Shown here one piece after another: positions 5,543-54,846 of a stretch of DNA of 64,000 nucleotides (position 1 is its first letter; the number at the start of each line of letters is the position of its first letter). Origin of the DNA: Octopus vulgaris (Eukaryota); NCBI GenBank assembly GCA_951406725.2, contig OX597835.1:992001-1056000 (forward strand), read 5' to 3'. The translations under genes were made by a program, and so were the position numbers. The notes beneath the pieces are model-generated. The model saw nothing but the letters and a program-made list of their open reading frames with translations. It was not told the origin of the DNA and did not search any database.

Positions 5543-5620
5543 ATGGCGGCTGGCGTAGGAAATCACTTTAGCGGAGCTGTTCTCCTCACCAACCTAGACG
5601 ACTTTATCACACCTTCACAG
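5543..5620 (+). CDS. CIAO3: CIAO3/NARFL coding exon 1
   Basis: ATG...[26 protein letters not shown] then GTAGAT donor; matches the NARFL N-terminus. Confidence 0.93.
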
Positions 5621-8600
5621 GTAGATTAATTATCTTTATAAATAACAAAAAAATTTTATAGCAACGAATATAAAGGGAATAAGTTGCCTCACAACTTTAA
5701 CCATGTTCGAAGCTGAGAATTGTGCTGTTAGTTTTAGTAGTAGGGCAATAATTTCAAAAGGGACTTTTCTCAGGCGACACCTATTTTAATGATCTTTTAA
5801 GGGAAGAAGCTTTGCATGTGACTAAGTTTTCGGGTTTGAAAATTTTTTTTTCATGTCTTTGAATTAGAATATATTCAGAGAAATATATAAATATAGGAGT
5901 AAGAAAAGATAAATGTAAACCGTGGCTGCTGTTTAACCTCAACTCGGGCCTAGAAGGCGTTCCATCCATGACTTTGCCGTATTAGTTCATCTCGGGCCAT
6001 GTTACATTTGTTCTCTGTTAATTTTAAACGGTTTTAATTGGAATTGAGATTTGGCTTTTATTTCTGGGAGGTTCACTAACAATGGTGCTCGCTCCTGGCG
6101 CAAGATATTTTTGCTTCTGTTATACTTTTACTCTTTTATTTGCTTCAGTCATTTGACTGCGGCCATGCTGGAACACCGCATTTAGTCTAGCAAATCGACC
6201 CCAGGACTTATTCTTTGTAAGCCTAGTACTTATTCTATCGGTCTCTTTTGCCGAACAGCTAGATTACGGGGACGTAAACATACCAGCATCGGTTGTCAAG
6301 CAATGTGGGTGGGTGACACACACATATATATACACGACGGGCTTCCTTCAGTTTCCGTCTACCAAATCCACTCAAGGCTTTGGTCGGCCCTAGGATACAG
6401 TAGAAGACACCTACCCAAGGTGCCACGCAGTGGGAATGAACCCGGAAACTTTGTTTCAATTAAAGAATATTCTTAGTTAATTACTAAGGCCACCGAAAAA
6501 AACGAGTGTAATAGGTGTAAAAAAAAATGTATATTAAACGAATCTGAAAACCAAAATTTGCGCCAACGAACTGGGGTGGGGAGAGGACTTTCAGAAAATT
6601 CCGAAGACCCGATATTTTCCCTCATAACTTTTAGGAAAATGGATATCTTTTGATGGAATTTTATAGAAAACCTTTCAAGCGGCGTAGATTACGATTATAA
6701 AGATATTTGTGGGGTAAAGTTTTTTTTTTCGAGGAGGACTTTTAGAAGATTCACACGATCCGATTTTTTCCCTTATAGCTTTTAGGAAAACGGATATCTA
6801 TTAATGAAATTTTATAGGATTATCTTCCAAACGGCATAGATTACGACTATAAAGAAATTTGTGGGGAAAATTTTTTTCCAAGGGGAAAACTCGGCCTTGC
6901 TTTTATTCCATAGTGAGACTCAACACTGTATGAATTTGTTTCTCTCATCATGATACAAAAGATCTTTTTAAAAACCTTTATCTATTACTCAAACGACAAA
7001 TAAACGAATCTAAACATTTTTTTCCAACTTTTTTCCATTACACTGAAGCAAAAAAATAATTTATGAATTTCTTTCTCTTCGAATGTCCTCCTCTTACCTC
7101 ATCGGAAAAAAACATTTTCCCCACAAATTTCTTTATAATCATAATCAATGCCGCTTGAAAGGTATTTATATAAAATTTCATTGAAAGATATCCATTTCCC
7201 TAAAAGTTATGATGGGGAAAAAATCGGATCTTGTGAATTTTCCGAAAGTCCTCTCCCGACCTCACCCCGGTTCATGGACGCAAATTTTTGTTTTCATATT
7301 CATTTAATACACATCTTTTAACACCTATTTTTTTGTTTTGGTGGCCGAGTGTTAAAGTAGTAATTAGCCAAAAAAATGTTTTAACGTGGCCTTACTATTC
7401 TGAAAGTCCCTTCTCCGCCAAGTTCCTTTGTCGGTTGGGGATGTAAAGCGTGACTCTGGCCCCAGATCAGCCCTGACCGAACTGACCTATGATCAGTTAA
7501 AAGGTTCCATCTGTCAATATGTGACCATCTCAACAAATTGTAACTATATTATGAAATGTTTCGATTTTTTGGCAGTAGGGTGTTATTTGAGGAAATTTAA
7601 CTGGTGTTTCTAGCAGATTGCATGACCTCGTACCTGCATGTCCTGTCGAGGTCTGTGGTCATTTTATTCACCTTTCGTAAAACTGGTTCTAAGTATTCTA
7701 ACCTCAATGAATAGAAGCAGGCGGAGGTGGAACTGAATGAATGAATGAAGCAAATAACAATAGTGCCGGCATACTTACACAAGTGTACCAATAGTGCGAA
7801 ATATTTACCATTCATGGATAGATTGCTCATCCCACCCCCGCCTCCGAAAACCGATTATTCATTGATAAAAGCGATCCTCTATTCCTGCACGAGTCTATAA
7901 TTTGCTAAAACGGGTAATTAGTCGTAAGAAGTAGAGATATAATATATATATATAACGAAACAGGTAAGAGGATGCTTAAAGGGGGAATTAAAGCGGCCCT
8001 GGTCGAAATATACGTTTTTCTCTCCTTAGTTATTTAATATCCATCCATGCTCTTTCTACTTTCATATTTCAAGGTTTGTCGGTTTTGTGGCGGCTTCCAC
8101 AAACGTTTAGCTTTGTAAGTGTTTATCAACATAGAACGACGCAGTTTATTTTCGTGGGGAGGCTGAGTGTGTTTTCTTTCTCCTCTTTCAGACTATAATA
8201 CCTTCAGTACAGAGAGAAAGCGAGAGGGTGGGGGGGGGAAGAGAAATTAAGAAACGTTGGTATTTATATCAAGAAGGAAAATGAAAATGGCTTATTTACA
8301 ACCGAGAAACAGAACTTGTTTGCTCTCCGTGCATTTTTTTATGCTTAACGACGATTGCCACACGTTTTTCTGGATTTTGAAATCGCCGAGTTGTTCGTGT
8401 TTTTAATGCAATGCGGATTTCACTTTGGAAACACTTCACTGTTTGGGAGACGCACACCATCCAGTCTCTTACTTTCATAAGAACATCCAAAGACATTTCT
8501 AATTAAGATGTGGAAGTGCAAAAGGCCTGTCTGAACAACCGCACACACACGCACACAAAGGAACCTTGCCATATCCACGCGCACACAAAATACTCCAATA

Positions 8601-9294: not shown

Positions 9295-12200
9295 TGCGTG
9301 TGTGTATGGGGATGTATTTATATAAATTGGCTTTTTGGAACTCTTTTATTTATTTTATATGTATGTATTTTCATCTTTTGTGTGGTATGAGAAATGCTGC
9401 TTTCTCGGTGGTACTTGTTGATTTACTCCAAGGAAATGAAGAAAGCAGGAAACACCAAAGTAAGCAATGGAATGGAGTGAGTCCCCATAATGTGCTAATT
9501 GTATGAGGAGGATGATGGTGGTGGTGGTGGTGGTGGCGGCGGTGATAGTAGTTAGTGCTCTGCGCTGGTTTCAATGTAATAATAGTTATGGTGGAAACAC
9601 AATGCCAAGATATTTGTTGCCAGTCACGCATTACTTAAGCTTGGACTTTCCAAGACAATCATTTCGTCGTCTTCTTCTTACGGAGAAAGCAAAATGCCGT
9701 TTTCCTTTCGTTTTCACAATTTCCTTTCACTCGGTCGTCTCCTGTCTTTCTCTCCACCTTGTCTTCTTCTTCCAGTCCGCCTTCAGTATCCTTCACTTGC
9801 TCGATTCATCTCCGCTTCCTCCTCCTCCCCTTTCTCTCTAGCTCGAATCTCTGTTTCCTCTTCAGCTTGAAAACCTTTTCTTCTTCATATTTCTTCTCTC
9901 TCACTGGAAACCTTTTCCATATGTTTTCTCACGCTCCTACTCTGTCTACTTGCACGATCCTCAATGGTTCTGTCGTAGCCGCTTCTGCCAAAGCCTTCTA
10001 CCCCTCGTCCGGCTATCTACTTTCTGTTATGTACTAACGGAGAAACAGTCTATTTCTCTCTCTCTCTCTTCACCTTTTCATTGGAGCTTCTCTTCTTCCA
10101 GCCAAGTATTCAATCAGTTCATGTGATGACTAATTGTGATTCGTAACAGGTAGCCTTTGGTGCGCGTGTATAAGCAGCTCCGAATCGTCCTACATAGTTC
10201 ACCTGCTCCCCACCTATGGAGACCTCTTTCTTGTTATTCAGGTGTTCTGCATTGCTATTCATTATTGGTCCTTCAGTTCTATTGCCGACCTCACTCTTTT
10301 ACTCAGTGTAAACCTCCCACTTTTTCTTGATTGTTTTCATTTGTATTTCGTCATTTTACTGTCCACAGACTTTTTAGACGATTAATAAATAAAAAAATAT
10401 TATTTTTAATTCGAAAGCCTTCAACTTTCGCTTTCTCCAACCACGATATAATTTGTTACCAGAGTATCTTGGAACGCACTTCATGATGATATTGCTAGTT
10501 AACGTGATTTAATCAGGTGAGCCCTGATCAAACAGATCCCTGCTCAAAGGTGTTCCAGCTTTGACCATCTCATCACTTTATGTCAGGTACTACACTGTCC
10601 AACACGTCTCCTATGTAAGACACTGGGAAGTGATTTGAGGGAGATTTAGCAGCTCATTTTAGCAAGTAGAATGACCATGTGGAGGTGTCTTTATTGTAAT
10701 TATGGTTGTTGTGGGTTCAAGAGACAGCAGCAGACTTGAACATGGAGTGTATGCACTTTATGTTTGAGGCTCTGATGAAACTTTTCTAGGGAAAGAGGAC
10801 AAGATTAGAAAGGCCACCAATTCCTACATAGACGACATTTTGGTGGACGAAACTGTAGTGCCAGCCAACGAGGTAGTTCGGACTGATTGCGAAGCCACCG
10901 GAGTCGATGGAAGGGGGAGCTGCACTGGGGCTGAAGCTGCGAAGAGATAGATTGGGTGAATTGGTGTTCCGGAGAGGGAATGAAATCCCAGAGCTGAGTT
11001 CCAGCGTCAGCAGGAGAGAGCTGTTCTCGGTGTGTGGGAAGTTGGTCGGTCACTACCCGATCGCTGGATGGCTGCATACAGCGTGCAGTTACACCAAGAG
11101 ATGAGCGGAGGGGGAGAGTTGGGGCTACAAGATGGGAGAAGGGATGGTGGCGATGATGCAGAAAATCCTAGAGAGGACGAGAGTGAAAGACCCGGTCAGG
11201 GGGAACTGGTACGTGCCCAAGACAGAATGCAGGACCGTCTGGTGTGATGCTAGCAGTATAGCGATAGGGGTTGTGTTAGAGATCGAAGGTGCTGAGGTGG
11301 AGGATGCGGCCTCGCTTCGGAAAGCAGATGACTTTGACCACATCAATGTCGCCAAATTAGACACAGTGCTGAAGGGGGTGAACTTGGCCCTGAAATGGGG
11401 GCTGTGCACAATCGAAATCCAGACGGATTCAGCCACTGTGCTTGGCTGGTTAGGATCAGATCTCACCGGTGAGAGGAGAGTTCGGACGAAAGGTGCCGCG
11501 GAGATGTTGGTGAAGTGCCATCTAGGAGTTCTAGGTGAATTGATTGCCGAGTTTGGACTGAAGCTGAACGTGGTTTTCGTGCCTTTGGAGAGAAAAGGAG
11601 CAGACGCACTGACCAGGGTAAAAAGGGCGTGGTTGGAGGAACCAGAGGAGGCACAGAAAGGGATAGCTGCAGCGTGTCGGTTGGATGACTCCGAACTGAA
11701 GAGACTGCACGCTATGCATCACCTGGGTGTGGACAGGACCCTGTATCTCGTGAAGAAAATTGATGCTGCCATTACTAGGAGAAGCATCTGGAAAGTGGGC
11801 GGGAGCTGCGGCAGGTGTCAGTCCATTGACCCTGCTCCGTGTGGGCATGCGCAAGGAAACCTTTTGGTGGAGCACAACTGGAAGAAGCTAGCTGTGGATG
11901 TGACGCACTACTGTCAAGGAATGTATCTCTCCATGGTCGACAGTGGGACAGGCCGGCTGGGCATTTGGAGGGAGTTGAGAACAGATTTTGAACGGGATAT
12001 CTTTAGAGAGGGGTCCCATGGAAGAACTGCTAATGGACAACGGGGCAGCATTGAGGGATATGCTCGACTGGTGGAAAGTGCATCACTTGTTCAGAGCAGT
12101 GTATAGGCCGAGCGGTAACGGAATTGTAGAGAGGCACCATCGGACAGTCGAGGCCATAGCGGAAAGAGGGTTTCGCTGCTGGAAGCAGTTTTTTGCTACA

Positions 12201-15200
12201 TGTCTTCCCGATCCGGACAAGCTGAAGAATCTGTGCCGCACAGAGCGGTATTTAAATATGAGATAGACACCTACCTTCTCTTTGTTGACGTAGACTTCTC
12301 CAGCGGTAACGTGCCCTTCCACGTGGCCCGACCTGAACACTAGAAATAGCAGCTGCTTTTACCCTACCTTGACAAAGCGCTCACACGTCCAGCTCTGTTG
12401 GCTACCCTGATCGAAAAGGTCCAATCCTACCCTACCTGCGCGCGTGTCACTCCTGCCCCTTGCTCTTCAGGTCAGCTCCCCAGCTGCTGACGTCATCCCA
12501 CAGAGAGAAAACATGAAAGATATGTAGTAATACATATGTAGAAGATTCCTGAAGGTCTGGCTCCCAACTTTAGAACTGAAAGCCATACTACTCACTCAAC
12601 TGGACCTCACTGCATCGTACCAAAAGATCTTTCTCTCTTCTGTCAGAGGAAGAACCTAATACTGTAACAAGGTCCACAATTTTTCAGTATCATACCAAAA
12701 GGCCTCAGAAACCTGTGAGATGCAGATGCAGTCAAAGAACAGTTAAGTTTTTATCCGATATATTCCAGATGAACTCACATTACAGTGAAAAACATAAACA
12801 AGTGCAGCTCTGACCCACTTACTACTTCACCTGGATTGATTCTGGTGACAGGACTGGGAAGTGAGTCTAAAACAGACAGGTGTCACTGCAAACGGCCATA
12901 CGGCAGCACCTGGGCTGAAGCTGTTAATAGAATAAAAGATATTTTAAAACTGGCAACCCATCAGTTATGACAATAAGGATTCCAGTTGATCCGATCAACA
13001 GCCTGCTCATGAAATTAACATGCAAGTGGCTGAGCGCTCCACAGACACGTGTAACCTTGATGTAGTTCTCAGGGAGATTCAGTGTAACAGGGACAGCCCT
13101 TTGAAAAACAGGGACTGCTCATTTTTGCCAGCTGAGTTGACTGGAGCAGTGTGAAATAAAGTATCTTGCTCAAGGACACAGTGTGTCGCCAGGAATTGAA
13201 CGCATGACCTTATGATTGTGAGCCGAATACCCTAACCATTAAGCCATGCATCTTCACATATATGATATATATAAGTCTTCTACATACATATATATGATAT
13301 ATATACACCTTGGGCCGACCAAAGCCTTGTGAGTGGATTTGGCTGATGGAAACTGGATGAAGCTCGTATATATTTATATATATATATTAATTAGTAGCTA
13401 GCTTTGTCTGTGGCTTTTACTAGGGAATAGGGCAGCCAGAGTTCTTTGCTGTTTGCGGTGCACCTGTCCATCCCACCACCACCTATACCAGGAGTCTTTC
13501 TGCTCTGAGTCCACCAGATGTCTGTCTCCTGAGCACCTCTGATGGCTTACTATATGGCACACTTTCCCTCCTCCAACCCTACCTAGTGTCTGTCTCCTGC
13601 TGAACGTAGTGTTTATGTAGCGAATAAAATGATGGTGTAGTGTATGCAGGTTGAAGGCTATTTGTATGTTTGCAAGATCTGCCAAATACGAGCTTTCTTT
13701 TCAGATGCAAAATGCTGCTGTCCCCGACCCCAGGGTCTCCCTGGCCCACACCTTCCCCACCCTCACAGTTGGCACATTGAAATGTAGATCTGGTGAGATT
13801 GTTGAGATGCTTGAACATAGACGTGTAGAATTGTGCTGCATCTAAGAAGTAAGGCTGAAAGGAAGTTCTGCTAGGTTCCTCACAGGCAAAGAACATAGGT
13901 ACAAGATTTTCTGCGTAGGGAACACTGATGGGGTTGGGGGCATGGGTATACTCCTAGTGAAGAAATGGGTTTATAAGGTAATCGAGATAGTCAGAATCTG
14001 TGATAGAATACTTACGCTTAGACTGGTGCTGCAACATGGATTAGCAACCATAATCTCAGCCTACACCCCTCAGCCAGGGCTACCTGATGAATAGCAAGAC
14101 CAGTTTTATGACACCCTCTTTGTGGCTGGCGACTTCAACAGTCATGTTTGACTTGAAGTGAGCTTCCATGGTGTACGTGGTGGCAACTGATTTGGTTCCC
14201 ACTATGAGGAGGGAACCAGGCTGCTGGAGTCCTGTGGTGAAAATGATCTTATGATCTTTAATACTAACTTCAGGAAACCTACCAGTCTGGTGGACACCCT
14301 AGTCAGATTGACTATGTTCTCACCAGGAAACGGGAAAGATGGCTACTTATAAAAGCCAAAACTTTCCCAGGTGATGAATGCACCCCACAACATAGGTTAG
14401 GAGTCAGTGACATCAGGATCAGTGTTAAATGGCTGCCCAGAAGACGACCAGCATGGAAAAGAAGGATCTGGAAGCTTATGGATCCTCTGAAATTTAGAGA
14501 TATATTACTTGGAGCTTTTGATGAAAAAGAGGAGGATATAGCACCACATAATGACTACTGTTGTTTTAATTCGTTATAAAAGCAGAAACCTCTAAAATGA
14601 TTATTCATATCAAATCAGATGGATGCTTGGTTTTATGCTGCATATCACCAGTCATTTCTTCAATCAAGATTAGTGAAAATCTTATGCTGTTAGCCGAAAT
14701 TTATGTCATTTGAAAATGCAATTAACCAAATTATGCAATTATACAGAAAAGCACTTTAATGAATTGATTGTATCATCAACAGAGTGAACAAATATATAGA
14801 ACCAGCTGTCTCAACATCCCAGCAGGCATTTAAATTTGTGAACTGTGTGTGTGTGTGTGTGTAACTGAGAAGCAAGAATCAAGATAATTGCAGTGTAGAA
14901 GGTGTTTATAAGCCATTTAAGATTCACTTCAACATTTAAATTTAATTTGTCAAAATATTTTCGTCGCTTTGAGACCGCAACCTGTTCACTGACAGAATTC
15001 TGTGCTGCATCACGGAATCTGCACCTATGCAGAATTTTGTCAGTGAACCTGTCACAGTCTCAAAGCAACGAAAATTTTTAGACAAATTAAATCTAAATGT
15101 TGAAGTGAATCTTAAATGGCTTATAAACACCTTCCGTGCTGCAATTGTTTTTGTTCCAGCACACGATCTCAGATCAGGTCACTTGCTATGCAAGGGCATC

Positions 15201-18200
15201 TCCGTAATAAAAATCAAGACATTAGACTCAAAAACTGTCGCTAGTATTCCTACATTATCCTCCTCTATTGAAAGTTCTTTCTATGTCAGCAAGACATTCT
15301 ACATGTGTCAATATTTTATAAAAAAAACAATGGAGAAACTGTTTTTTGTTTCTCAATAAAATTCACATCGTTTTTCTGTTTCAATCTTCTTGATTCTGTT
15401 TCTTCCATCAGCAATGTGTAAAACCTTTGAATATTGAGAAAAAGACTGGCAAAGTTGGTAAGATCAAGATTGAAGATGATGGAAGCTACTACGAAGTTAG
15501 CACGGTAAGTCGATTCAGGCGGTCGATTCAGATTCTACCTTTTTTTGCAAATTCTTTCTTTCTCATATTCTAGAGTAGGAAGAATTGATTATGATACATA
15601 AGAATATATTCGAAATAAATACATTATAATCTCTCTCTGACCATCTTTCCCTCCTTAAACTGCTCTGTTTTCTGAGTTATGGCAACCTTGCCGGTATAGA
15701 AGGTTCTGAAAAGTTTGAGAGTCCATCTTGTCAGATGGGTTATACCTGTAAATCAAAGTTGTATCTGCGTGAAAATCATTTTTCAATGGTTTAAATGTTT
15801 GCATATCTATGTGTGCACGTATTTATCTATAAGTCTGTCAGTCTGTTTCGTCATCATCCTTGTTTAACATCCACTTTTCCATGCTTGGAGTTGGATGGAA
15901 GGAAACAGTAATGCACACACACAAGTACACACATGCACACACACACATGCACACACACACATGCACACACACACATGCACACACACACATGCACACACAC
16001 ACATGCACACACACACAACACACACACATGCACACACACACATGCACACACACACATGCACACACACACACACATGCACACACACACATGCACACACACA
16101 CATGCACACACACACATGCACACACACACATGCACACACACACAAACACACACGCACACATACAGGGTGAGATGGGTAAATTGTCGGCATTTTATACTTT
16201 CAATTTTGCACATGCACTTTGTCTGTTCTGGTTTTGTCAATTATACCACAGGGTCAGTTGGGCACCGTCTGTGAGAAAAACAGCACCCTGATGCAATTCA
16301 CTCGACCAGAAATTTGGAAACGACATGCTATGCTGCTTAGCATTCATGCTGGAAACTTCATTATGAACATTTCAGAGTGTTTGGGTGTCAATCTGAGGAC
16401 ATATGCCCTGGGTCAAGAGGGTGGCTGCTGAAAGACCCTATGTCTGGCAAAAGGACTCTGCACCATGCCACACAAGCAGGAGAACCCAGTCATGGCTGTC
16501 AGGCAATTTCTGTAACCACATCACCCCTAACATCTTGCCACCTAACTCCCCAGACTGCAACTGCCTTGATTATTGTAGCACCAAAGATGAACTGAAGGCA
16601 AATATTATGGCAGCATTCACCACCTTAAACAAGGAGACCACCCTGAAGAGTTGCAGGAGATTCCAAAGTCATCTGGAGGCCATAGTTGAAGCGAATAACA
16701 ATTTTATTGAATAGATTTACTCTTTAGTATTTCAAGATTTTTTTATGAAATTTTGGTAAATACATCTGTTAAAATGAGATGTTATTTTAATTTTTGCATA
16801 ATTTAGATGACAGCTTATTCACTGTACCCTGTATATATATATATGTATATATATATATGTTATTGCTGAGACCCCCTTCGGTCATGACTGACCATGGGAT
16901 TGCACCTTCAAATTTATCCTCCCAAGCACAAGTCTGGGCAAGGTTGTTTATCAATAAGTAACAAGAACAAACATTTGAAAAAATTGCTTGTAACTAGCAC
17001 CTGTGGCAGTGTCACGTAAGTAGCACCTGTGCTGTGGCACATAAGTAGCGCCTGTGCTGTGGCACGTAAAAAGCACCTTTCGAGTTTTGGGCCTCCCGGA
17101 GGCAATGTGGCCGATGCCAGTGTCGCATAACTAGCACCTGTGCTGGTGGTATGTAAAAATCACCTTTTGAGTGTTGGGCCTCAATGACCGAGACCTTTGG
17201 CAACAAGACCCATCAAGCCAAGTGAAATCATAGTTGCAGCAGATACTGGTGTTACACAACTGGCATGTAAAAGCACCCACTACACTCTTGGAGTGGTTGG
17301 CATTAGGAAGGGCATCCAGCTGTAGAAACTCTGCCAGATCAAACAGGAGTCTGGTGCAGCCGCTCAGATTATCAGCTCTGGTCAAAACTGTCCAATCCGT
17401 GTCAGCAGGGATAACAGAGATTAAATGATGATCCTTATGGTGATATATGGTCTGCAGCAGCTTTGAATTCAAAGGTCCAGCCTTGTTACACACTGAGACT
17501 GCCTGATTATAACATTAACAGAAAGAGTGTCTGTGGAATACCTTGCCACAAAATTTAATGAAATACAGCAAGGCACGTTTGAGTATTTTCTAGTTGAACT
17601 TGTGTTCTAGCAGTTTACAATATATTGATCAGACAAGTGTTTTACACATTGTCAATGCAAAATCCATTAAACTTGCTATTTTACATCTTTCTTTGCTGTT
17701 TTGGCTCCTGTTCCCCTATTTTCATCTCCTCAACCTGTCAATATGTATTATTTATATTATTATTATTTGTTCAGTCAGGTGAAGCTAATAAATTGAAGAA
17801 AGCAAAAATCACATTGAATGATTGCCTTGCCTGCAGTGGATGTATCACCTCAGCAGAAAGTGTACTCATCTCACAGCAAAGTTCTGAGGAATTATACAAA
17901 GTCTTGGAGCAGAATTCTGCCATTCAAAAGGTAGACAAAAATTCTTATTTATTCACTTTATTCAGTTGTTTTTTTTTGTTTTCAGTTTTTACTTAATTTG
18001 TATTTTTAAAAAAATTAAAGTTTATTTTTATTTTCCGTCTTGCAACCTTTTCAATAGTCTTGACTATTGAAAAGGTTGCAAGATGCAACGAAAATTTTAG
18101 GAAAATAAAAATAAGAAATAAGTGGAAATTTTACCAGTGAGTGTGTTACATAATAAGGCACAAAAAGAAAATGACTCTCCCCAGACACAACAGTATATAA

Positions 18201-21200
18201 TAACAGATATGCCTAATGTTAATAATAAGGGGGGAAAATGAATAAGTATTAGTCCAAGCAGTGACAGAGAGAGAGAGAGAGAGTCGGCCTCCATTGTTGA
18301 TGAAAAGAAAATTGTATGTCATTGCTGGGGCAATGTGGACGAGTAAGCAAGTTTCCAATGTTGAAGAGAGAAAGAAAACATAACAATACATCTAATGATC
18401 TGAAAGTTGATTATTATCATTGTTATTAAGCTAGTACTTACTAATTTAATTAACAGGAATTAATATCTTACAGTTTGGTAACAAATCTCCACAAATCTCA
18501 AGAATTTTCCTTAAGATTCTTGCAGAATATAGGATAGTACTTATCTGCAGGTGGACAATACAAATTTCAATTCCAATCTCTTTCAGTCTTTTTGGTAGCT
18601 TTTTGGGGTGTTCTGTCAAGTTTACCAATTACTAAAGGAATACTTGTTGTCTTAGTTTTCCAGTCTCCCCAGCTCTTTGGCTAGACCCTGATATTTCTCC
18701 ACTTTTTCAATTTATTTGATATTGACTTGGGGTTGATAAAATAAGTGCTTGTTGCACACTGGAATCAAGATAGGCAACTAAATCCCTCACCTGAAATTGT
18801 TGGCCTTGGGCTAAATTTTGAAATTATTATTATTATTATTATTATCGAATAAGAGAGCAGTGCATGCCATCAAAATGACACTGGGGTAAACTATACAAAG
18901 CCCAGTATACCCATCATGACTACCTGGCTGATAAGGGTACACCAGGCACATGCATCACAACACATGTGCGCGACATGGTGATCTCATAACAAGATAAACA
19001 GCGCATGACCTTGTAGGTGGGGCCTAGTTAGAATTTTCTTCAGGTCAAGTAGCCCATCCCACTCAAAAGGCCCCTGAAATAAGAGTTGTTTAAGGGTGTT
19101 GAATGAAACACCCATGTTTCCAAAGGTGAATTATTCAAACCCCAAAGAATCCCTCTCAACACCTGGCTATGATGCTCCCCCACTACTTCTGCTCGTGATC
19201 AGAGATGCACATATCGTAAGCCACCAAGGGACATGCTCAACTGGTTATGGTCAAACAACTGACAAGCAAATCTGTGGTATTGAGCAGAATATTTGCTGTA
19301 GCCCATCTTTTATACCAAGACAAAACAATGTACATGATGACACTTCCAATCAGTTAAGATCAGAAGCCATGAGAGCCACTGCCTGGTACTGCATCAGGGC
19401 ATTTATTATTATTATTATTATTTCACAGGAGTGGCTGTGTGGTAAGTGGATTTGGTAGATGGAAACTGAAAGAAGCCTGTCTGTGTTTGTCCCCCCACCA
19501 TTAACTGACAACCAGTGTTGGTGTGTTTACATCCGTAACTTAGTGGTTCAGCAAAAGAGACGATAGAATAAGTACTAGGCTTACGAAGAATAAGTCTTAG
19601 GGTTGATTTGTTCAACTAAAGGTGGTGCTCCAGCATGGCTGCAGTCAAATGACTTAAACAAAAGAATACACAACAGATTGAACTGGTGGAAAGGAGAAAC
19701 TCCTATCACTGGGCTACAAGTAACCTTAATAACCCACAACCTTCCTAAGTATCCTAATAACACTGTTTTCTGGAGCTGCACTAAACTAGATTTTATGACT
19801 ATTTTCTCTGTCCATCTGTTGTTCAAATCTTTAGGGATAGTTCCTAATGTACCTAGAACTACTGGGGTCCATTCTCTGGCACTTTTTATTTTCTTTGTCT
19901 ACTACTACTACTAAACCAGGCTTTCTAAACAATAACTGCAGTTAGCGCAATGTAAACTTTGAACTCATGACTCTCAGGGTTTGGTAAGGAATCCCGAACC
20001 CTAGCCTACTTAGCCAATTTGTCTCTCCAATCTGGGAATAACGTATGTTTCATAGATTCTTCCTTCCAACACTCTCAGAGACACTGCAAAACTAAGCAAT
20101 TGAAGAAGAAAAAAGCTAAATTCTAACATTTTAGTCTAACCAGTATCATTCCAGATCTTTCTTCAGATTCTAGAACTTTCTACAAAGTTAGACTGAGATC
20201 CTCTTGTGTTACATATCAGTCCCTCAACCTTCTCCGTTTCCTTCTATCAGCTGTTTCTCACAAAAGGTCCAGTTTCTCTAGATTTTCTCTAAATGTTCTT
20301 TGCCAAGTTTATGTGGTTCTCTTTCTTCTCTTCCCGTTTCGTGGTAGACAGATTGATGTTTCCATATGTTTTTTGTTCGACATATGCAATAAAATGTCTT
20401 GTGAAGTGAGTCAGCACTGCTTGATGATGTTTGCTAAAAGTTAAGAATCTGCTCTTTCTAGAAATCTTTCATTGATGAGTTTTCTGTCTCTGTATGTGAT
20501 CTTTTCCAGACATCTTTGATGGAGTCTGCTCAGGTTCTGTGATATTGTGATCGTAACTTTTCAAGACTCACCAACATAAATGGTTGTGGGAATGCCAATG
20601 GTTTTTTAGAGTTTGGGTTTATTTGCAGTAGGTAATTATGCCTCCCCCACCACTGTTTTTTTTTTTTTAAACATCACTGATGTTTTCCCAAGTCAGCAAT
20701 GGATGTCACCTTTGGCAACTTTCTACTCTAAAAGAATTTTTAAAAAGTTAATTATCTTTTATTTTTCTCACTTATACTGCTCACCGTGCAAATGCAACTT
20801 GGTTGCTGAAAACTTTGGCACTCAAGAAGTAAAAGGGAAAAAAATTGTAACAGTTTTTGTGCATTTTTTGATGGTTAAAATGACTCTTCCGTGACATAAT
20901 TGCTTCATTTTCAACAGATGGGTTCAGATGAAATTGTTTGTCAGACAACTCAAAAAATTTTTCTTTATTTCTTATAATTATTTTTATTGTTATTGTTTTT
21001 AAGTAAATCCTTTTTTAAAATATTTGTTATAATTGATATATTTAATCTAATCATCTTTTTTTCCATTTATTGTAATTGTTCTTGTTTCTCTTTTTGTTGT
21101 TGTTGTAATTAAATGTTTCCATTGTTTATTTTGAATTTTTAGGGAGAACAATCTGCTAACGAGAAACTCGTTATCGTCTCAATATCACCACAATCTCGAG

Positions 21201-24200
21201 CTTCATTGGCAGCAAACTATAAACTTTCTTTGGAAGACACCGCTAAGAAATTAACAGCCTTTTTCAAAGGTTTAGGTAAGGAATTCTGTTGTTGTATCAT
21301 AACATTGATTTCAAACATTTGGCATAAAAACCAAACATATTGTAGAGATAAGGATACAGTTAATTAAAATGATCACTTTATCATCATCGTTTAACGTCCG
21401 CTTTCCATGCTAGCATGGGTTGGACGATTTGACTGAGGACTGGCGAACCAGATGGCTGCACCAGGCTCCAATTTTGATCTGGCAGTTTCTACAGCTGGAT
21501 CCCCTTCCTAATGCCAACCACTCTGAGAGTGTAGTGGGTGCTTTTACGTGCCACCGGCACGGGGGCCAGTCTGGTGGTACTGGCAACAGCCATGCTTGAA
21601 ATGGTGTTTTTTATGTACCGCCTGCACAGGAGTCAGTCCAGCGGAACTGGCCATGACTTCACTCGAATGTTTTGTTCAGGTGCCAGTGAGGCGACGCAGG
21701 TAACAATCACACTCAAATAGTGCTCTTTATGTGCCACTGGCACAGAAGCTAGACAGCTGCTCTGGTAGTGATCCCGCTCAGATGGAGCTGTTAGTGCGCC
21801 ACTGGCATGGGTGCCAGTCATCGAATTTGGTTCAATTTCAATTTATCTCCTCAGTAATTGAGAGCTATTAATTTTATCACTTTCAGGAAAGGTGAAATGC
21901 AAAGAAAAACCCTTAGCAAGATATGCATTCCCATCATAAAACATAAAAGAATGAAACTAAATACCACAAGGTGGAGGCATAATTGTGTGGTTAGTAGGAA
22001 GTTCCTTTTGAAATTACATGATTCCAGATTCAAATCATTCTATGCAGTACTTGGGTAAGTGTCTGCTTTGACCTAAGGTCAACCAATGGTTTGTGTTTGA
22101 AATTTGGTCAACAGAAACTCTGTAGAAGCCCATTGCAGGAATTGCTCCTGTTCTTAGGTGGTAGATTTAATCTTTTGCTCCACACCACCGTCTGATTCTC
22201 AAGTGTCTTTAGCAGAGGTCATTTTGTTACCAGCATTGAAGCCAGATCTCTCATCTGAGTATAACTTCCTCATGCAAGTCATGGCTTGGAATGGACTGTA
22301 GATGCTTACCCCTCATCTCACTAAACCATTGAATATTTTTTTAAATAAAAAATCTGTTTCTCGATAGTTTATATCAATCTCTCTGTCTGTGTAACCAAAA
22401 GGGAAAAACCCTCCTCTGCCATCCTCCTTAAAATGAAAGTTTAAGACATATGGAGAGGGTAGAAGGAGGAGGGAGAAAAAGAAAAAAGTATTCATAGGCA
22501 GACAATTTTTTTTTAACAAGGAACTGACACATGGTGCTCAACCTGCTGAAAATAACAGCCAAAAGTCAATCACACCCTCTCATCCTAAATAAATGCCATA
22601 TTGAGCAATAATGTTCCTAATGCACAAATGACGAGATTCTTATAAATTTTATGCATTTTGTTGTTGTTTTGTTCAATTCCAACTGATTTGGGAACAAATC
22701 ACCAAAGGTTATTTTTAGCCAAAGGAGTAAAGCTTCTGGATGGGCATCAAATTCCTAGATATCTCTCAAATAATAACCAGAGATCCTCCTTCAGCACTTG
22801 ATACACTGATGTCTCGCTTAATTTTGCTGTGGCAGCCAGTTTTCTGACAGAATGACGAGGATTTTGCTGTAAAGCCGAGAGATTTGCACACTTCTTTTTT
22901 GGTCACATCCAAATCGATCAGCAGTGGAACCAGTCTCTTGAAATTTCTTGACAATTTTCCAGACTGGTGTTCGGTTAATTTAAAGCTTTTTTGCTAAAGC
23001 TGTATTACTTTCACGTCCTTCATTTGGGATATAAAATAATAAAAGTTGGTTATAATATTTTTAATTTATAGTTAAGAGAGAAAAGTTATTTCATATTGTA
23101 TACTAAAATAGTAGTTTAGAATATATTTTAGAAGTTGTTATTGTTGTTGTTATTATTATTATTATTATTTCAATGGACTAACAAATTGATTCTATTATTC
23201 AGAAAAAAAAGTATTAGATATATAAAAAAAATGATAACGTACTAACTTCTCTGAGGAATTTAAATATTATTGCTAAGAAAAATTAAAGGTATGAGGTATT
23301 ATTAAAGAAATAATTGTAAATAATAATGAGTTATCTCCTTTTGTTCATGTGGTTAAATTAACAGATGAACTAATATTCACATGAAAAAATGCGAGCAAGA
23401 GAAATAATATTCTTAAGATTATAAACATGGAAAAGTACAGGAAGAGTTATTACATCTGGTAAAGTACAGATTTTGCTGGGCAAATCAGTCTTACTTTTTG
23501 GTCAGTACAGAAATTAGGTTTATGATCCTTAAGGGATATTCTAGGTCTCGAAGGGATAAAAGGTTCGGTCAAATCATCAATATTATATTCTGTCATTATT
23601 TTGTTACACTCAAGGTTAATATTTTTAAGTATATTCTTATTTACTATTTCATATTTTTTTGTGATTTCCTTCTGTCAGAAAACTGGCTGCCACAGCAAAA
23701 ATAAGCCAGACATTGATGTGTCGAGTGCTGAAGGAGGATCTCAGGACCCACCCCTACAAGATGATCTGCCGTCATCGGCTCACACAAGTTTATAAGGCCA
23801 TGAGACTGGAGAGAAGTTGTCTTCTCCTGCGTCAGATTGCTGAAGGTATGATGCTCAACCTGGTGTTCACTGATGAAAAGAAATTTGACATTGAACAGAC
23901 AGTAAACCACCGGAATGACTGACTTTGGATGTACCTGGCTCTGTTGAGGGTAGTCTCATAAATTGACATTAAATTCCACAGTCATGGTTTGGGTGGCTGT
24001 GACAACCATTGGAAGGTCACCCCTCATTTTTGTACCCTTGGGTATTAAAATTAACACCCATCTGTGAAGGTTGACCTTACCCGCTGTCATCATCATCATT
24101 GTCCTTGTTGTTTTCACCAACGCCAACACCTCTATTTATTACAGAATCATCACCATCGTTATCACCAATAAACTCAAAGCTTTTTCCTGATGAGTTTCTT

Positions 24201-33261: not shown

Positions 33262-33882
33262 TGAGGGTAAGTCAAAATTATTTGCATTTTTTCCATAACA
33301 TCTCTTTGTTATTGTCACTCTGCCTTGGGCACATGCATGCAGTACCACATGGTACTATGGTGGTCATGTGATCAAAGTTTGAACCTGGTCGTACCATTTT
33401 TCTTTCTAGTTTTATAGTGTAAGCATGGCCACTCCACTAGCAATGTGCACCAAAGAAGAACAAAGATCTGAGAGATGGTAATGGTGAACCAGTTTACCAT
33501 TACCCTCTCTTGAGCTTGTTGAACCTTCTCTCATCAGTGGTGGAGGTTGACGTGTGTCATGCTTGTCCGGCCACTTTTAAACTTTTTGATCCACTCATAC
33601 ACACCTCTACGCATTACTGCACTCTCCCCATATTGTGCTCCAATGAATTTCACACCTGATCAGAGAAATTGGATCACTGCTCTTTGGTGCACATTGCTAG
33701 TGGAGTGGCCATGCTTACACTGTAAAGCCAGAAAGAAAAACGGTACGACCAGGCTCAAACTTCGATCACATGACCACCATAGTACCAACCATGTGGTACT
33801 GCATGCATGTGCCGAAGTCAGTGTGATAATAATAATAAAGATACGTTGTAGCGAAAGTTTGGATTATTTTTGACTTCCCTTG
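33262..33882. mobile_element. Mariner-derived foldback MITE made of two 5' ends
   Basis: TA-flanked, ~200 bp inverted arms beginning GAGGGTAAGTCAAAA; both arms encode the transposase start MATPLAMCTKE; the - strand continues into an HTH (YGESAV...VYEWIKKFKSGRTS). Confidence 0.8.
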
Positions 33883-52100: not shown

Positions 52101-54846
52101 GATGCTAACGAGAAGCAGCAGCAGCAGCAACGATGAAGAGGATGATCAGACTTAATGACAAACACATCTTTCATCTCTGCCACCTGCTGTTCTGCGTCTT
52201 GGACTCAGAATGTCCACTCCTATCTTACTGTCTTATTTTGGTCACAACAAGTAGACTTCTTTTCCAATGTTCTGCTGACACAGAGCTGTGAGAGTGATTG
52301 GCAAACCAAGACAGCTTCTTAAATGTACAGGTAATTATATATAAAGAATAAAAGTGAAAAAAAGAAAAAGAACCAAGTAACTTACCTGACTGGCACATTT
52401 TTGTGTGGTTTGTACATCTCCTAACAGTAAACTGGTGTCTTGTAACCAACTGAGAAGGTAAGGATACTGTAGGTAGAGCTCCAGCAGAGTATGTTGGTAG
52501 AGATTTGAGAGTGAACTGGAAATACAGAGGCAGAAGAAACAGATACATAGAGAGGAAGGGAGATTAGACAAGTCATCATCGTTTAACGTCTGCTTTCCAT
52601 GCTGGCATGGGTTGGAGAGTTTGACTGAGGACTGGTGAGCCAGAGGATGCACCAGGCTCCAATCTTGATCTGGCAGAGTATCTACAGCTGGATGCCCTTC
52701 CTAATGCCAACCAATCCGAGAGTGTAGTGGGTGCTTTTTACATGTCACTGGTATGAGGGCCAGTCAGGTGGTTCTGGCAACGACCACTCTCAAAAGGTGT
52801 TTTTTACATGCTACCTGCACGGGAGCCAGTCTGGTGGCACTGGCAACAGACCATACTCGAATGGTGCTTTTTACATGCTACCTGCACGGGAGCCAGTCTG
52901 GTGGCATGCTGGCAATGATCACGCTCGAATGGTGCTTTTCATGTGTTAACAGCATGGGAGCCAGTCCATGGCCCTGGCAACGATCACGCTCGGATGTGCT
53001 TTTCACGTGTCACTGGCACAATCAGGAGGCACTGTCATCAGCCACGTCAACGATTTTGATTTATAGAAATAATTAACACTAATCAACCAAGAAAGAAAGA
53101 AATAACCAGGAGGAGGAGAGAGAGGAGGATTGGCTCACCTGGAACTGAGAGCATATTTTTCCGTGTGTCTCACCAAACCCTTCAACTTAGTATCACTGTT
53201 GCTAAGACAATTCTTCACTAACTCAATACGACAATTGATCACAGAGGCAGAGTCATTGGAGACTTTCTGGTCAGAGATGTCTTCTCCTTCTTCCGTTTCC
53301 TGCAGACAAGATTCACTCGCCTCCTGTACAACATAGTCCACAACTGTACAGATTTGCTCAAGTCTCAACCCAAGAACATCATCTGAAGTGAAACTCTGAA
53401 GAAAAAGAAAACAAAAATGAAAAATAAAAAATTTTCAATTCATGGAACAACAATTACTTAAAAGGAAACAACGTTTGATGCATCTCACGGATTTTTGTCA
53501 GTGGAGAGGTCATTGTAGTCTCAAAGCAACAAAGATATTTCGACAAATTAAATTTAAATGTTGAAGAGAATCTAACGGCTTTTGTGTGTTTCTTAAATGG
53601 CTTATAAACACCTTCCACACTGCAATTGTTTTCATTCCAGCACACAATCTCAGATCAGGTCACTTGCTATGCAAGTACATCTCTGTAAATGTTTGAAAGT
53701 TATATCAAATTATCAGAAAAGAAAGAAAACTAAAAAGCTCCAGCTTCCAAGGTGGAGGGAGTATTTGAGAAGGGATAAAAGAAGATAGTGATGATAAACT
53801 CTCAAGGTACAAAAAGGTGAGCATAAGAGAGGATACAGAGAGTGGGTCATGAGAGGAGTGGTGGGAATAGATACTTTGTTAAAAGTATCAGGGAGAGCAA
53901 GAGACGGAAAGTGATGAAGGTAGATGTGAATGTAGCAAGTGATGAACAAGGGTGGAGGCAGGGTGGATGGAAACGGCTCAGGAGAAATAGGTGAGAAGGC
54001 AAGTGGGTGATATGGAAGGGGTGTAAGAGTAGCGAGAAAAGAAATGCGGAGTACATAAGGGTGGCAATAGAAAATGGTGCACACTGGTGGATATGAGAGG
54101 GTGCATGTGAGGTATAAAAATGGAGTATGATAGAGGAGAGATACCTGAATGCAGAGAAAGGTGACCAGTGAAAATAGTGTGGGTGAGGAAGGGAGGATGA
54201 TGGGAATAAGAAATGGGAGTGGTTTCAGGGGGTGAGGAGCTAACTGGTAGTGAAAAGAAAAAAAGGGAGGAGTAATATGTGCCAGTATTTCCCTCAAGTG
54301 ACGAGTCACTAAAAAGTGCCATGGACAGAGGAGTGATGGAGGGCTGGGTGTTAGAGGAATGCTTGATGGGGCAGAATAAATTGCAAGTGTAACCAGAATG
54401 CTTTTAGGGCATCATTTAAGCTGTGGTGGGCAGGTCTTCTCAAGCAAACAGCCAATCCTCTCAGTCATTTGTTGTCTTCTCCGTGGGCTGAGTATCTCTA
54501 CTTCTCTGACGTCTTCCTGGCCCTCCCCATTCCACAAGTTCCTTCCACTTTGAGCAACCAGCACTTCTTTACACAATTGTCCTCATCCATACGCATCACA
54601 TACTTCCATAGACAGGAGTGAAGTTAACTTAGTTGATTCAGTTGAATATTCCAGTCAACACTCAACAAAAGAGAATAAAAAAGGGGTGTAAAATGTACCA
54701 ACCTTTTGACCTTTTCTTTCTTGTCCTTGCCACAACTTTGGAATGTGAATACAGGCCCAAAGGAAGTCGAGCACAGAGGTCGGGTCGTGCCTGCAACAGA
54801 AAACAGTAAAGAAAACATACACTAAATATGTGTGTGTGTATAGATA

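Follow-up and report, generated by a model that had tools for sequence, protein, structure and literature searches.

The motif at 18064–18100 (+) in the Octopus vulgaris DNA analysed here (a window of 64,000 nucleotides; GCA_951406725.2, contig OX597835.1, positions 992,001 to 1,056,000) is a real hammerhead motif, and chance resemblance is highly improbable. It is very probably the minimal dimer-type hammerhead of an Octopus Penelope-like element (PLE), and the short repeat that carries it the pseudo-LTR (pLTR) end of such an element, with the copy in the CIAO3 gene an inert passenger. The coordinates of the features concerned are given in Table 1.

Table 1. Features of the hammerhead motif, its repeat and its surroundings (positions in the window)
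Feature	Position	Strand	Evidence
CIAO3/narfl coding exon 3 (acceptor 17775/6 or 17778/9, donor 17931/2)	17776..17931	+	Translation, splice sites, contig of a presumed RNA run
Partial copy of this repeat in inverted orientation	18022..18065	-	BLAST, arm alignment, independent DNA-run contig
Head-to-head junction: palindrome with 4-bp arms and a 2-nt centre, where inverted and direct copies overlap	18056..18065	.	Sequence; family loose ends
Direct copy of the short high-copy repeat, probably the 3' pLTR end of a PLE	18062..18199	+	Contigs of three DNA runs; depth edges
Minimal type I hammerhead motif	18064..18100	+	Sequence, descriptor scan, shuffles, folding
Stem I 5' strand, pairing with 18098–18100	18064..18066	+	Folding
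Core positions 3–9, U3:A8 form	18067..18073	+	Folding; family letters
Unpaired G, then stem II (18075–18079/18085–18089) and loop II	18074..18089	+	Folding, family letters
G12-A13-A14-A15.1, palindromic stem III and H17; predicted cut after 18097	18090..18097	+	Folding; published minimal-hammerhead geometry
ATG and first codons, possibly an ORF start inside the pLTR	18171..18199	+	Sequence; diverged contig
Two clusters of family 3' ends	18192..18199	+	Loose ends of contigs

All parts of the motif named in an earlier note on this DNA (the stems, the U3:A8 core, AATT and GAAA) were found in place. Stem I comprises three base pairs (C18064–G18100, T18065–A18099 and A18066–T18098). In the core TTGAAAA (18067–18073), U3 is 18067 and A8 is 18072, and the required U4, G5, A6 and A9 are all present. 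The unpaired nucleotide between A9 and stem II is G18074, and stem II has five Watson–Crick pairs opened by G10.1–C11.1 (G18075–C18089). GAAA lies at 18090–18093, and the AATT palindrome (18093–18096) replaces stem III, so that U16.1 is 18096 and H17 is T18097 in an N-U-H site. U-U-U is a weak hammerhead cleavage site. The longer stem I that the note had hoped to recover from other copies did not appear: the native upstream letters add no Watson–Crick pair, the next two oppositions being A-G and G-A. Folded alone (37 nt), the motif is of modest stability (z −2.15), and when a pair of motifs was co-folded, the predicted dimer had swapped stems II (−19.7 kcal/mol), the program having no scoring for the active dimer.

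A loose descriptor of type I hammerheads, allowing any Watson–Crick 3:8 pair, was applied to both strands of the window (128 kb) and to dinucleotide shuffles made block-wise in 1-kb blocks (n = 150). Exactly two matches were obtained in the window, namely the present motif and another at 14.9 kb; shuffled windows gave a mean of 0.087 matches, with one match in 13/150 and two in 0/150. The strict descriptor adds G10.1–C11.1 and a palindromic stem III, which are consensus-derived filters chosen after the motif had been seen. It matched in none of the 150 shuffled windows, and the motif is therefore not a chance product. Rfam covariance models (E ≤ 10) gave 72 matches in the window, with no hammerhead family among them. 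In a pattern scan of metagenome contigs, three of 107 loci passed the loose descriptor (stem I of at least 2 bp) and none had a minimal palindromic stem III; these three loci (GC 0.46–0.63) were treated as chance. The same type of scan of viral contigs gave no match.

Minimal dimer-type hammerheads occur in the pLTRs of metazoan PLEs, as described in the available part of PMC4209133 (Cervera and de la Pena 2014). According to the same part, the U3–A8 core has ~1,300 matches in Schistosoma mansoni (mostly single motifs), the alignment includes many stems I of 3 bp, and minimal monomers did not cleave while dimers cleaved weakly; a review passage reports likewise for the minimal hammerheads of Lunse et al. 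2017 (monomers uncleaved, dimers weak). The U3:A8 variant, put forward earlier as a third 3:8 pairing, is not new: the literature already has a PLE-linked Schistosoma example that combines the identical UUGAAAA core with a stem I of 3 bp. This element, Cercyon of S. mansoni (PMC4209133, available part), resembles the octopus motif in its UUGAAAA core, its stem I of 3 bp, the G10.1–C11.1 pair with an extra nucleotide ahead of it, U17 and a four-base palindrome that takes the place of stem III. Dispersed single copies and a nearby second motif on the opposite strand are further common points. It differs in a stem II of 6 bp (5 bp in octopus), in the palindrome (ACGU versus AAUU) and in its established PLE linkage, whereas the octopus motif, in an octopod host and with G as the extra nucleotide, is known without an ORF. 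Stem I of the octopus motif lies within the 2–5 bp range of PLE minimal hammerheads. As far as the available part of PMC4209133 goes, the stem III/cut site A-U-U-U is identical in a Crassostrea PLE hammerhead and stem II is nearly identical in Drosophila Penelope hammerheads, while the >80% consensus has H after A9, where the octopus motif has G. The 13 letters at 18101–18113 equal the printed flank after stem I of an Oikopleura PLE hammerhead in the same source, probably an A-rich coincidence.

The motif belongs to a repeat of ~135 bp, from 18062 to 18192–18199. The statement that the repeat continues to ~18200 thus holds, with family ends at 18192/3 and 18198/9. The family was surveyed by comparing contigs from 4 of 24 runs (DNA runs X2, X3 and X7 and the presumed RNA run X16) with 17772–18258 at 80% likeness. 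The aligned contigs numbered 21,747 (X2), 7,272 (X3), 13,208 (X7) and 208 (X16, called RNA by guess and with a depth that says nothing on expression). Summed depth over 18078–18196 reached millions in X2 and X7 and hundreds of thousands in X3, and the unique flanks had depths of 47.5 (X2) and 6.8–8.8 (X3). The repeat/flank ratio of 4–7 × 10^4 is no copy number and is inflated by overlapping contigs, and the claim is therefore limited to a family copy number of thousands or more. Family depth rises at 18062 (at 18027 via the inverted arm), is fairly flat over 18062–18199 and drops after 18199.

The core is kept across family copies, a point on which the earlier note had made its reading depend. 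In all four runs no other letter reaches 3% of depth at 18067–18083, 18086–18088 or 18091–18099. Because no core letter differs at this threshold, U3:A8 is taken as the state of the family in those contigs that span the core, with the limit that the local fit may have trimmed mismatches near 18062–18073, so that other 3:8 forms could be hidden. The changes listed within the motif are at the CpG positions 18084/5 and 18089/90, G18100A (0.9–3.2%) and A18066C. The latter (3–5%) was rejected as a change in stem I, as it represents family minus-strand contigs placed on the left arm. At 18084, where the locus copy has T, 73–78% of the family DNA depth has C, and therefore stem II of the family has 5 bp. 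CpG decay touches C11.1 and G12 in 3–12% of depth and has also affected the copy at this locus (T18084 and A18136). Outside CpG, and with 18066 excluded, variable positions number 1 of 32 in the motif versus 10 of 67 downstream (18101–18169), a difference that is not significant (Fisher p = 0.073). No compensatory changes in the stems were seen among family contigs. Ten of the 15 joints listed (129 more exist) link inverted-arm sequence to the direct copy at 18109–18170, with sides of 20–28 letters, and are read as other family copies with head-to-head inversions. At 18105, 48 contigs of run X3 keep the hammerhead and then diverge into related, indel-shifted sequence, corresponding to at least one further subfamily.

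The two clusters of 3' ends fall 95–102 nt past the predicted cut site, and the sequence beyond them is of three kinds: unique DNA rich in AT, (TA)n, or an AC-rich extension (tail) common to several copies. The extension is found behind 18198 in all three DNA runs (agreement 0.46–0.54), while AT-rich or (TA)n loose ends lie behind 18192/3 and 18199; the flanks of the 18064–18100 locus are AT-rich too. The ATG at 18171 may be the start of an element ORF, a lead only; a diverged contig of the presumed RNA run retains the ATG and its open frame, as do loose ends behind 18198, as far as these short ends reach. The diverged contig, from X16, covers 18073–18171 at a depth of 1,055 with nine other letters, and has 113 letters beyond 18171 that begin with the ATG and the open frame; it could be an expressed, longer family member. 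An open frame across 18101–18199 was rejected, the stop at 18119–18121 being the majority form. CCG/GTGAGT at 18134–18142 was set aside as the start of a PLE intron, since a deep contig of the presumed RNA run has 18140 A>C. The family form of these positions resembles a consensus 5' splice site in sense orientation (the locus copy has A at 18136) and could serve as a cryptic donor in introns; no use of it was seen.

The PLE identity of the family is suggested by its common 3' ends with an optional tail and a hammerhead close to them, by its AT-rich or (TA)n targets, and by a truncated copy in inverted orientation that overlaps the 5' end of the direct copy head to head, with a palindrome where the two meet. 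Reverse transcriptase and GIY-YIG domains of PLEs were found in none of the 100 reading frames at 12.5–21.5 kb and 51–56 kb (of 432 in the window). This missing ORF link counts against the PLE reading, although a truncated copy would be expected to show none. Further points against it are an inverted arm atypically short for a PLE, the non-significant excess of conservation in the motif with no compensatory change seen, and the G after A9.

Comparison with characterized elements, in each case with the available part of the source, supports this assignment. In Penelope, an inverted pLTR overlaps a direct pLTR head to head, junction palindromes are ascribed to self-priming, a tail is optional and the first 12 codons of the ORF lie within the pLTR (PMC3846280, Arkhipova et al. 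2013). Pen2a_Av of Adineta vaga (PMC3846280) shares with the octopus repeat the head-to-head overlap, the junction palindrome and the optional 3' tail and, if the 18171 ATG is correctly interpreted, the ORF start codons in the pLTR; it differs in that the octopus arm is ~44 bp long, internally deleted, short of the 3' end and accompanied by no ORF body. In PAc (Poseidon of Anolis carolinensis), reverse transcription starts at nucleotides 111–118 of the ORF, 85–92 nt past the cut site (+26). The PAc hammerhead depends on the protein, insertion in vitro proceeds without it, and no RNA reads ended at the cut site; its activity is partly rescued by the C3G/G8C double change (PMC11167929, Frangieh et al. 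2024). PAc is alike in having its end ~85–100 nt past the cut site, AC-rich, and in its AT-rich target. It differs in its C3:G8 pair and in the position of its ATG, at the start of stem II, the octopus candidate being 74 nt past the cut site; moreover, PAc activity was measured, whereas that of the octopus motif is a prediction. Hydra-1_Obim (PMC8557442, Craig et al. 2021) is also an Octopus element with a hammerhead ~100 nt from the 3' end and G after A9, but with a C3:G8 core and other stems. The same source reports a (TA)n preference for the Octopus PLEs Hydra-1_Obim and Naiad_Obim/Ovul, the Naiads being without canonical hammerheads. Three longer strings from the motif gave no match in the part of its supplement available, where line wraps could conceal one. 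In the O. vulgaris genome, PLEs amount to 6.83% in 190 families (published supplement row), and the available part of that paper is silent on hammerheads. A search of the available literature retrieved no report of octopus variant hammerheads, which Lunse et al. 2017 may list.

The locus has a feature absent from the earlier note, namely a fold-back in which 18022–18059 pairs with 18062–18085 and 18100–18114. The inverted arm contains the native upstream letters, the stem I 5' strand, the core and the 5' half of stem II, followed by a 15-nt deletion that removes everything from the stem II 3' strand through the stem I 3' strand; a further 15 nt from downstream of the motif complete it. It is only ~44 bp long and, unlike the usual inverted pLTR, stops at family position 18114, short of the 3' end of the repeat. 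Loose ends of the family before 18062 terminate in letters identical to those of the arm. The arm is no assembly artefact, because a contig from another DNA run spans 17772–18062 with no other letter and one gap. The 5' half of the motif forms the right arm of the fold-back, and the hairpin reaches −45 kcal/mol (z −10.6; 0/200 shuffles). According to equilibrium folding predictions, imposing the hammerhead stems carries a penalty of 27.4 kcal/mol in 3/3 contexts that contain the arm, where the pair probability of stems I and II is 0.0 to four decimals. In arm-free contexts the hammerhead fold costs 0 (49 nt) or 1.2 kcal/mol (whole element), and stem II has a pair probability >0.99. At 18022–18114 the pre-mRNA would contain an A/U-rich duplex of 24 + 15 bp, a plausible substrate for A-to-I editing in a cephalopod.

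As claimed earlier, the motif lies in sense orientation in intron 3 of CIAO3, with three coding exons upstream on the same strand (about 5543–5621, 15412–15504 and 17776/9–17931) and the motif 133 nt beyond the donor. The gene is identified by an Fe_hyd_lg_C domain and by a last exon that is 94% identical to narfl of Octopus bimaculoides and 84% to that of Argonauta. Of this region, a contig of the presumed RNA run matches exon 3 only (17774–17935) and then runs into other sequence, the pattern expected of a spliced mRNA. The relevance for CIAO3 pre-mRNA that this position seemed to imply did not survive the folding predictions, as the upstream arm sequesters the motif. The copy should not cut, because the arm traps the motif and because no intact same-strand partner is present within the window. 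Thus, in the CIAO3 pre-mRNA it is probably a passenger, predicted inert and removed along with the intron, and it is most likely ordinary genomic debris.

The following mechanism would account for these observations. The ~135-bp repeat would be the extreme 3' end (pLTR) left by strongly 5'-truncated or non-autonomous insertions. A PLE protein would nick AT-rich DNA, and reverse transcription would start 95–102 nt downstream of the cut site (or further by the length of the tail), as suggested by the clusters of 3' ends and by the Anolis PLE. Synthesis would halt immediately upstream of the hammerhead, where a small native palindrome lies, and self-priming or a template switch there could add the inverted partial copy head to head; this structure is observed, and the route to it is conjectural. 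In element RNA, by analogy with published relatives, two hammerheads would pair via their AAUU palindromes and the family motif would self-cleave as a dimer after U18097, in a reaction that may be slow and perhaps protein-dependent. In CIAO3 pre-mRNA, the inverted arm lies 5' of the motif and is therefore transcribed before it; this antisense arm, made first, would trap the stem I 5' strand, the core and the stem II 5' strand.

The other hammerhead of the window, at 14.9 kb, is of the G3:C8 type and lies on the minus strand (core at 14989). The note took the present motif to represent an independent family with a different repeat. The downstream sequences do differ, as it said, but stem II letters are shared: both families have the stem II 5' strand GGTTGC and a GC(A/G)ACGAAAAT stretch (27-nt match, E 0.05–0.1), and common descent of the two hammerhead families is therefore possible. 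The 14.9-kb hammerhead is situated in a long head-to-head inverted repeat (14876–15156) with 127-nt arms (86%). On its own strand, a hairpin of −171 kcal/mol takes up its letters in other pairs, and its plus-strand mirror copy has a damaged core. A third copy of this family at 53476–53688 (+) shows decay of both the core and GAAA and holds a 20-nt stretch absent from the 14.9-kb copies.

Chance resemblance within an AT-rich hairpin, to which the single loose matches in shuffled windows, the weak isolated fold and the absence of an Rfam match might point, is highly improbable and already largely refuted. The strict descriptor found nothing in shuffles, three features beyond the basic core fit the published consensus, the motif sits 95–102 nt from the family 3' ends, and a second such motif occurs in a second inverted repeat. 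Equally improbable is an intronic ribozyme with a host function, one that would adjust the level of CIAO3 pre-mRNA by cutting it and for which the hairpin might act as a gate. Sense orientation and closeness to the donor are compatible with it, and the locus with its arm also occurs in another data set, whose label names a different organism. However, the orientation is a coin toss (the intact 14.9-kb motif is antisense to the gene), a partner would be required besides crossing the 27.4 kcal/mol barrier, and the copy is one among thousands of similar ones with ordinary CpG decay.

The nature of the carrier and its present activity call for closer weighing. A short non-autonomous hammerhead element other than a PLE is very unlikely, whether related to non-LTR retrozymes but monomeric, or SINE-like and mobilized by some other retroelement. 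It would fit a repeat that is short, very abundant, of fairly flat depth and with no ORF seen, and loose ends before 18062/3 are heterogeneous (agreement 0.44–0.49), which is compatible with a nearby 5' end. The non-LTR retrozymes are likewise short, non-coding and PLE-related, have type I hammerheads and exist as solo monomers, according to the available part of a preprint (10.64898/2026.07.22.740005, Li, Clavereau, Pollet 2026). Yet they are built of at least two tandem units, each with a hammerhead, where the window has a single direct copy and the inverted fragment, and the minimal dimer-type motif, the tail-like extension and the head-to-head inversions are PLE traits. The two readings partly merge, since the preprint derives retrozymes from PLE pLTRs. 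It is also possible, if somewhat unlikely, that the whole family is a fossil, once active, in which U3:A8 and U-U-U are tolerated since cleavage is unneeded and whose uniformity reflects a burst from one master. This reading is consistent with a PLE origin and parts from the preferred one only over present activity. The non-significant excess of conservation in the motif and the CpG decay at C11.1 and G12 favour it, as do the poor cleavage of minimal hammerheads (PMC4209133) and, in Anolis, a hammerhead dispensable for insertion in vitro without RNA ends at its cut site (PMC11167929; available parts of both). Against it, restoring a 3:8 pair takes two matched changes, and the neighbouring family shows another matched pair, G3:C8; the partial rescue by the C3G/G8C double change in the same Anolis study argues in the same direction.

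With the family described here, the known U3:A8 minimal hammerheads come to include one from Octopus, which is of modest value for work on retroelements and ribozymes and of little consequence for CIAO3, the copy being predicted inert. U3:A8 minimal motifs escape Rfam and CUGANGA descriptors, and this high-copy family could be used to examine whether PLE hammerheads are selected for cleavage. A bolder proposal, which is decidedly unlikely, combines a live U3:A8 hammerhead in a still-transcribed non-autonomous PLE derivative (tens of thousands of copies) with a stem II lineage shared with the G3:C8 family, the 3:8 pair having been swapped twice within Octopus. If true, one genome would hold a natural compensatory series (C:G, G:C and U:A) at huge copy number, making selection on cleavage measurable, and host pre-mRNAs could be cut in trans wherever intronic sense copies free of an inverted arm pair with one another.

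Elsewhere in the window, a 333-aa frame in intron 1 (11105–12106, +) has a weak match to RVT_3 (RNase H-like; E 0.0007, below the curated cut-off) and is likely an LTR-retroelement remnant. Further long inverted repeats occur at 33306–33835, 6522–7319, 22777–23745 and 955–1567 (arms of 48–114 nt, 83–94%); the right arm of the last, at ~1545, includes CTGATGA, with no complete hammerhead by the descriptor.
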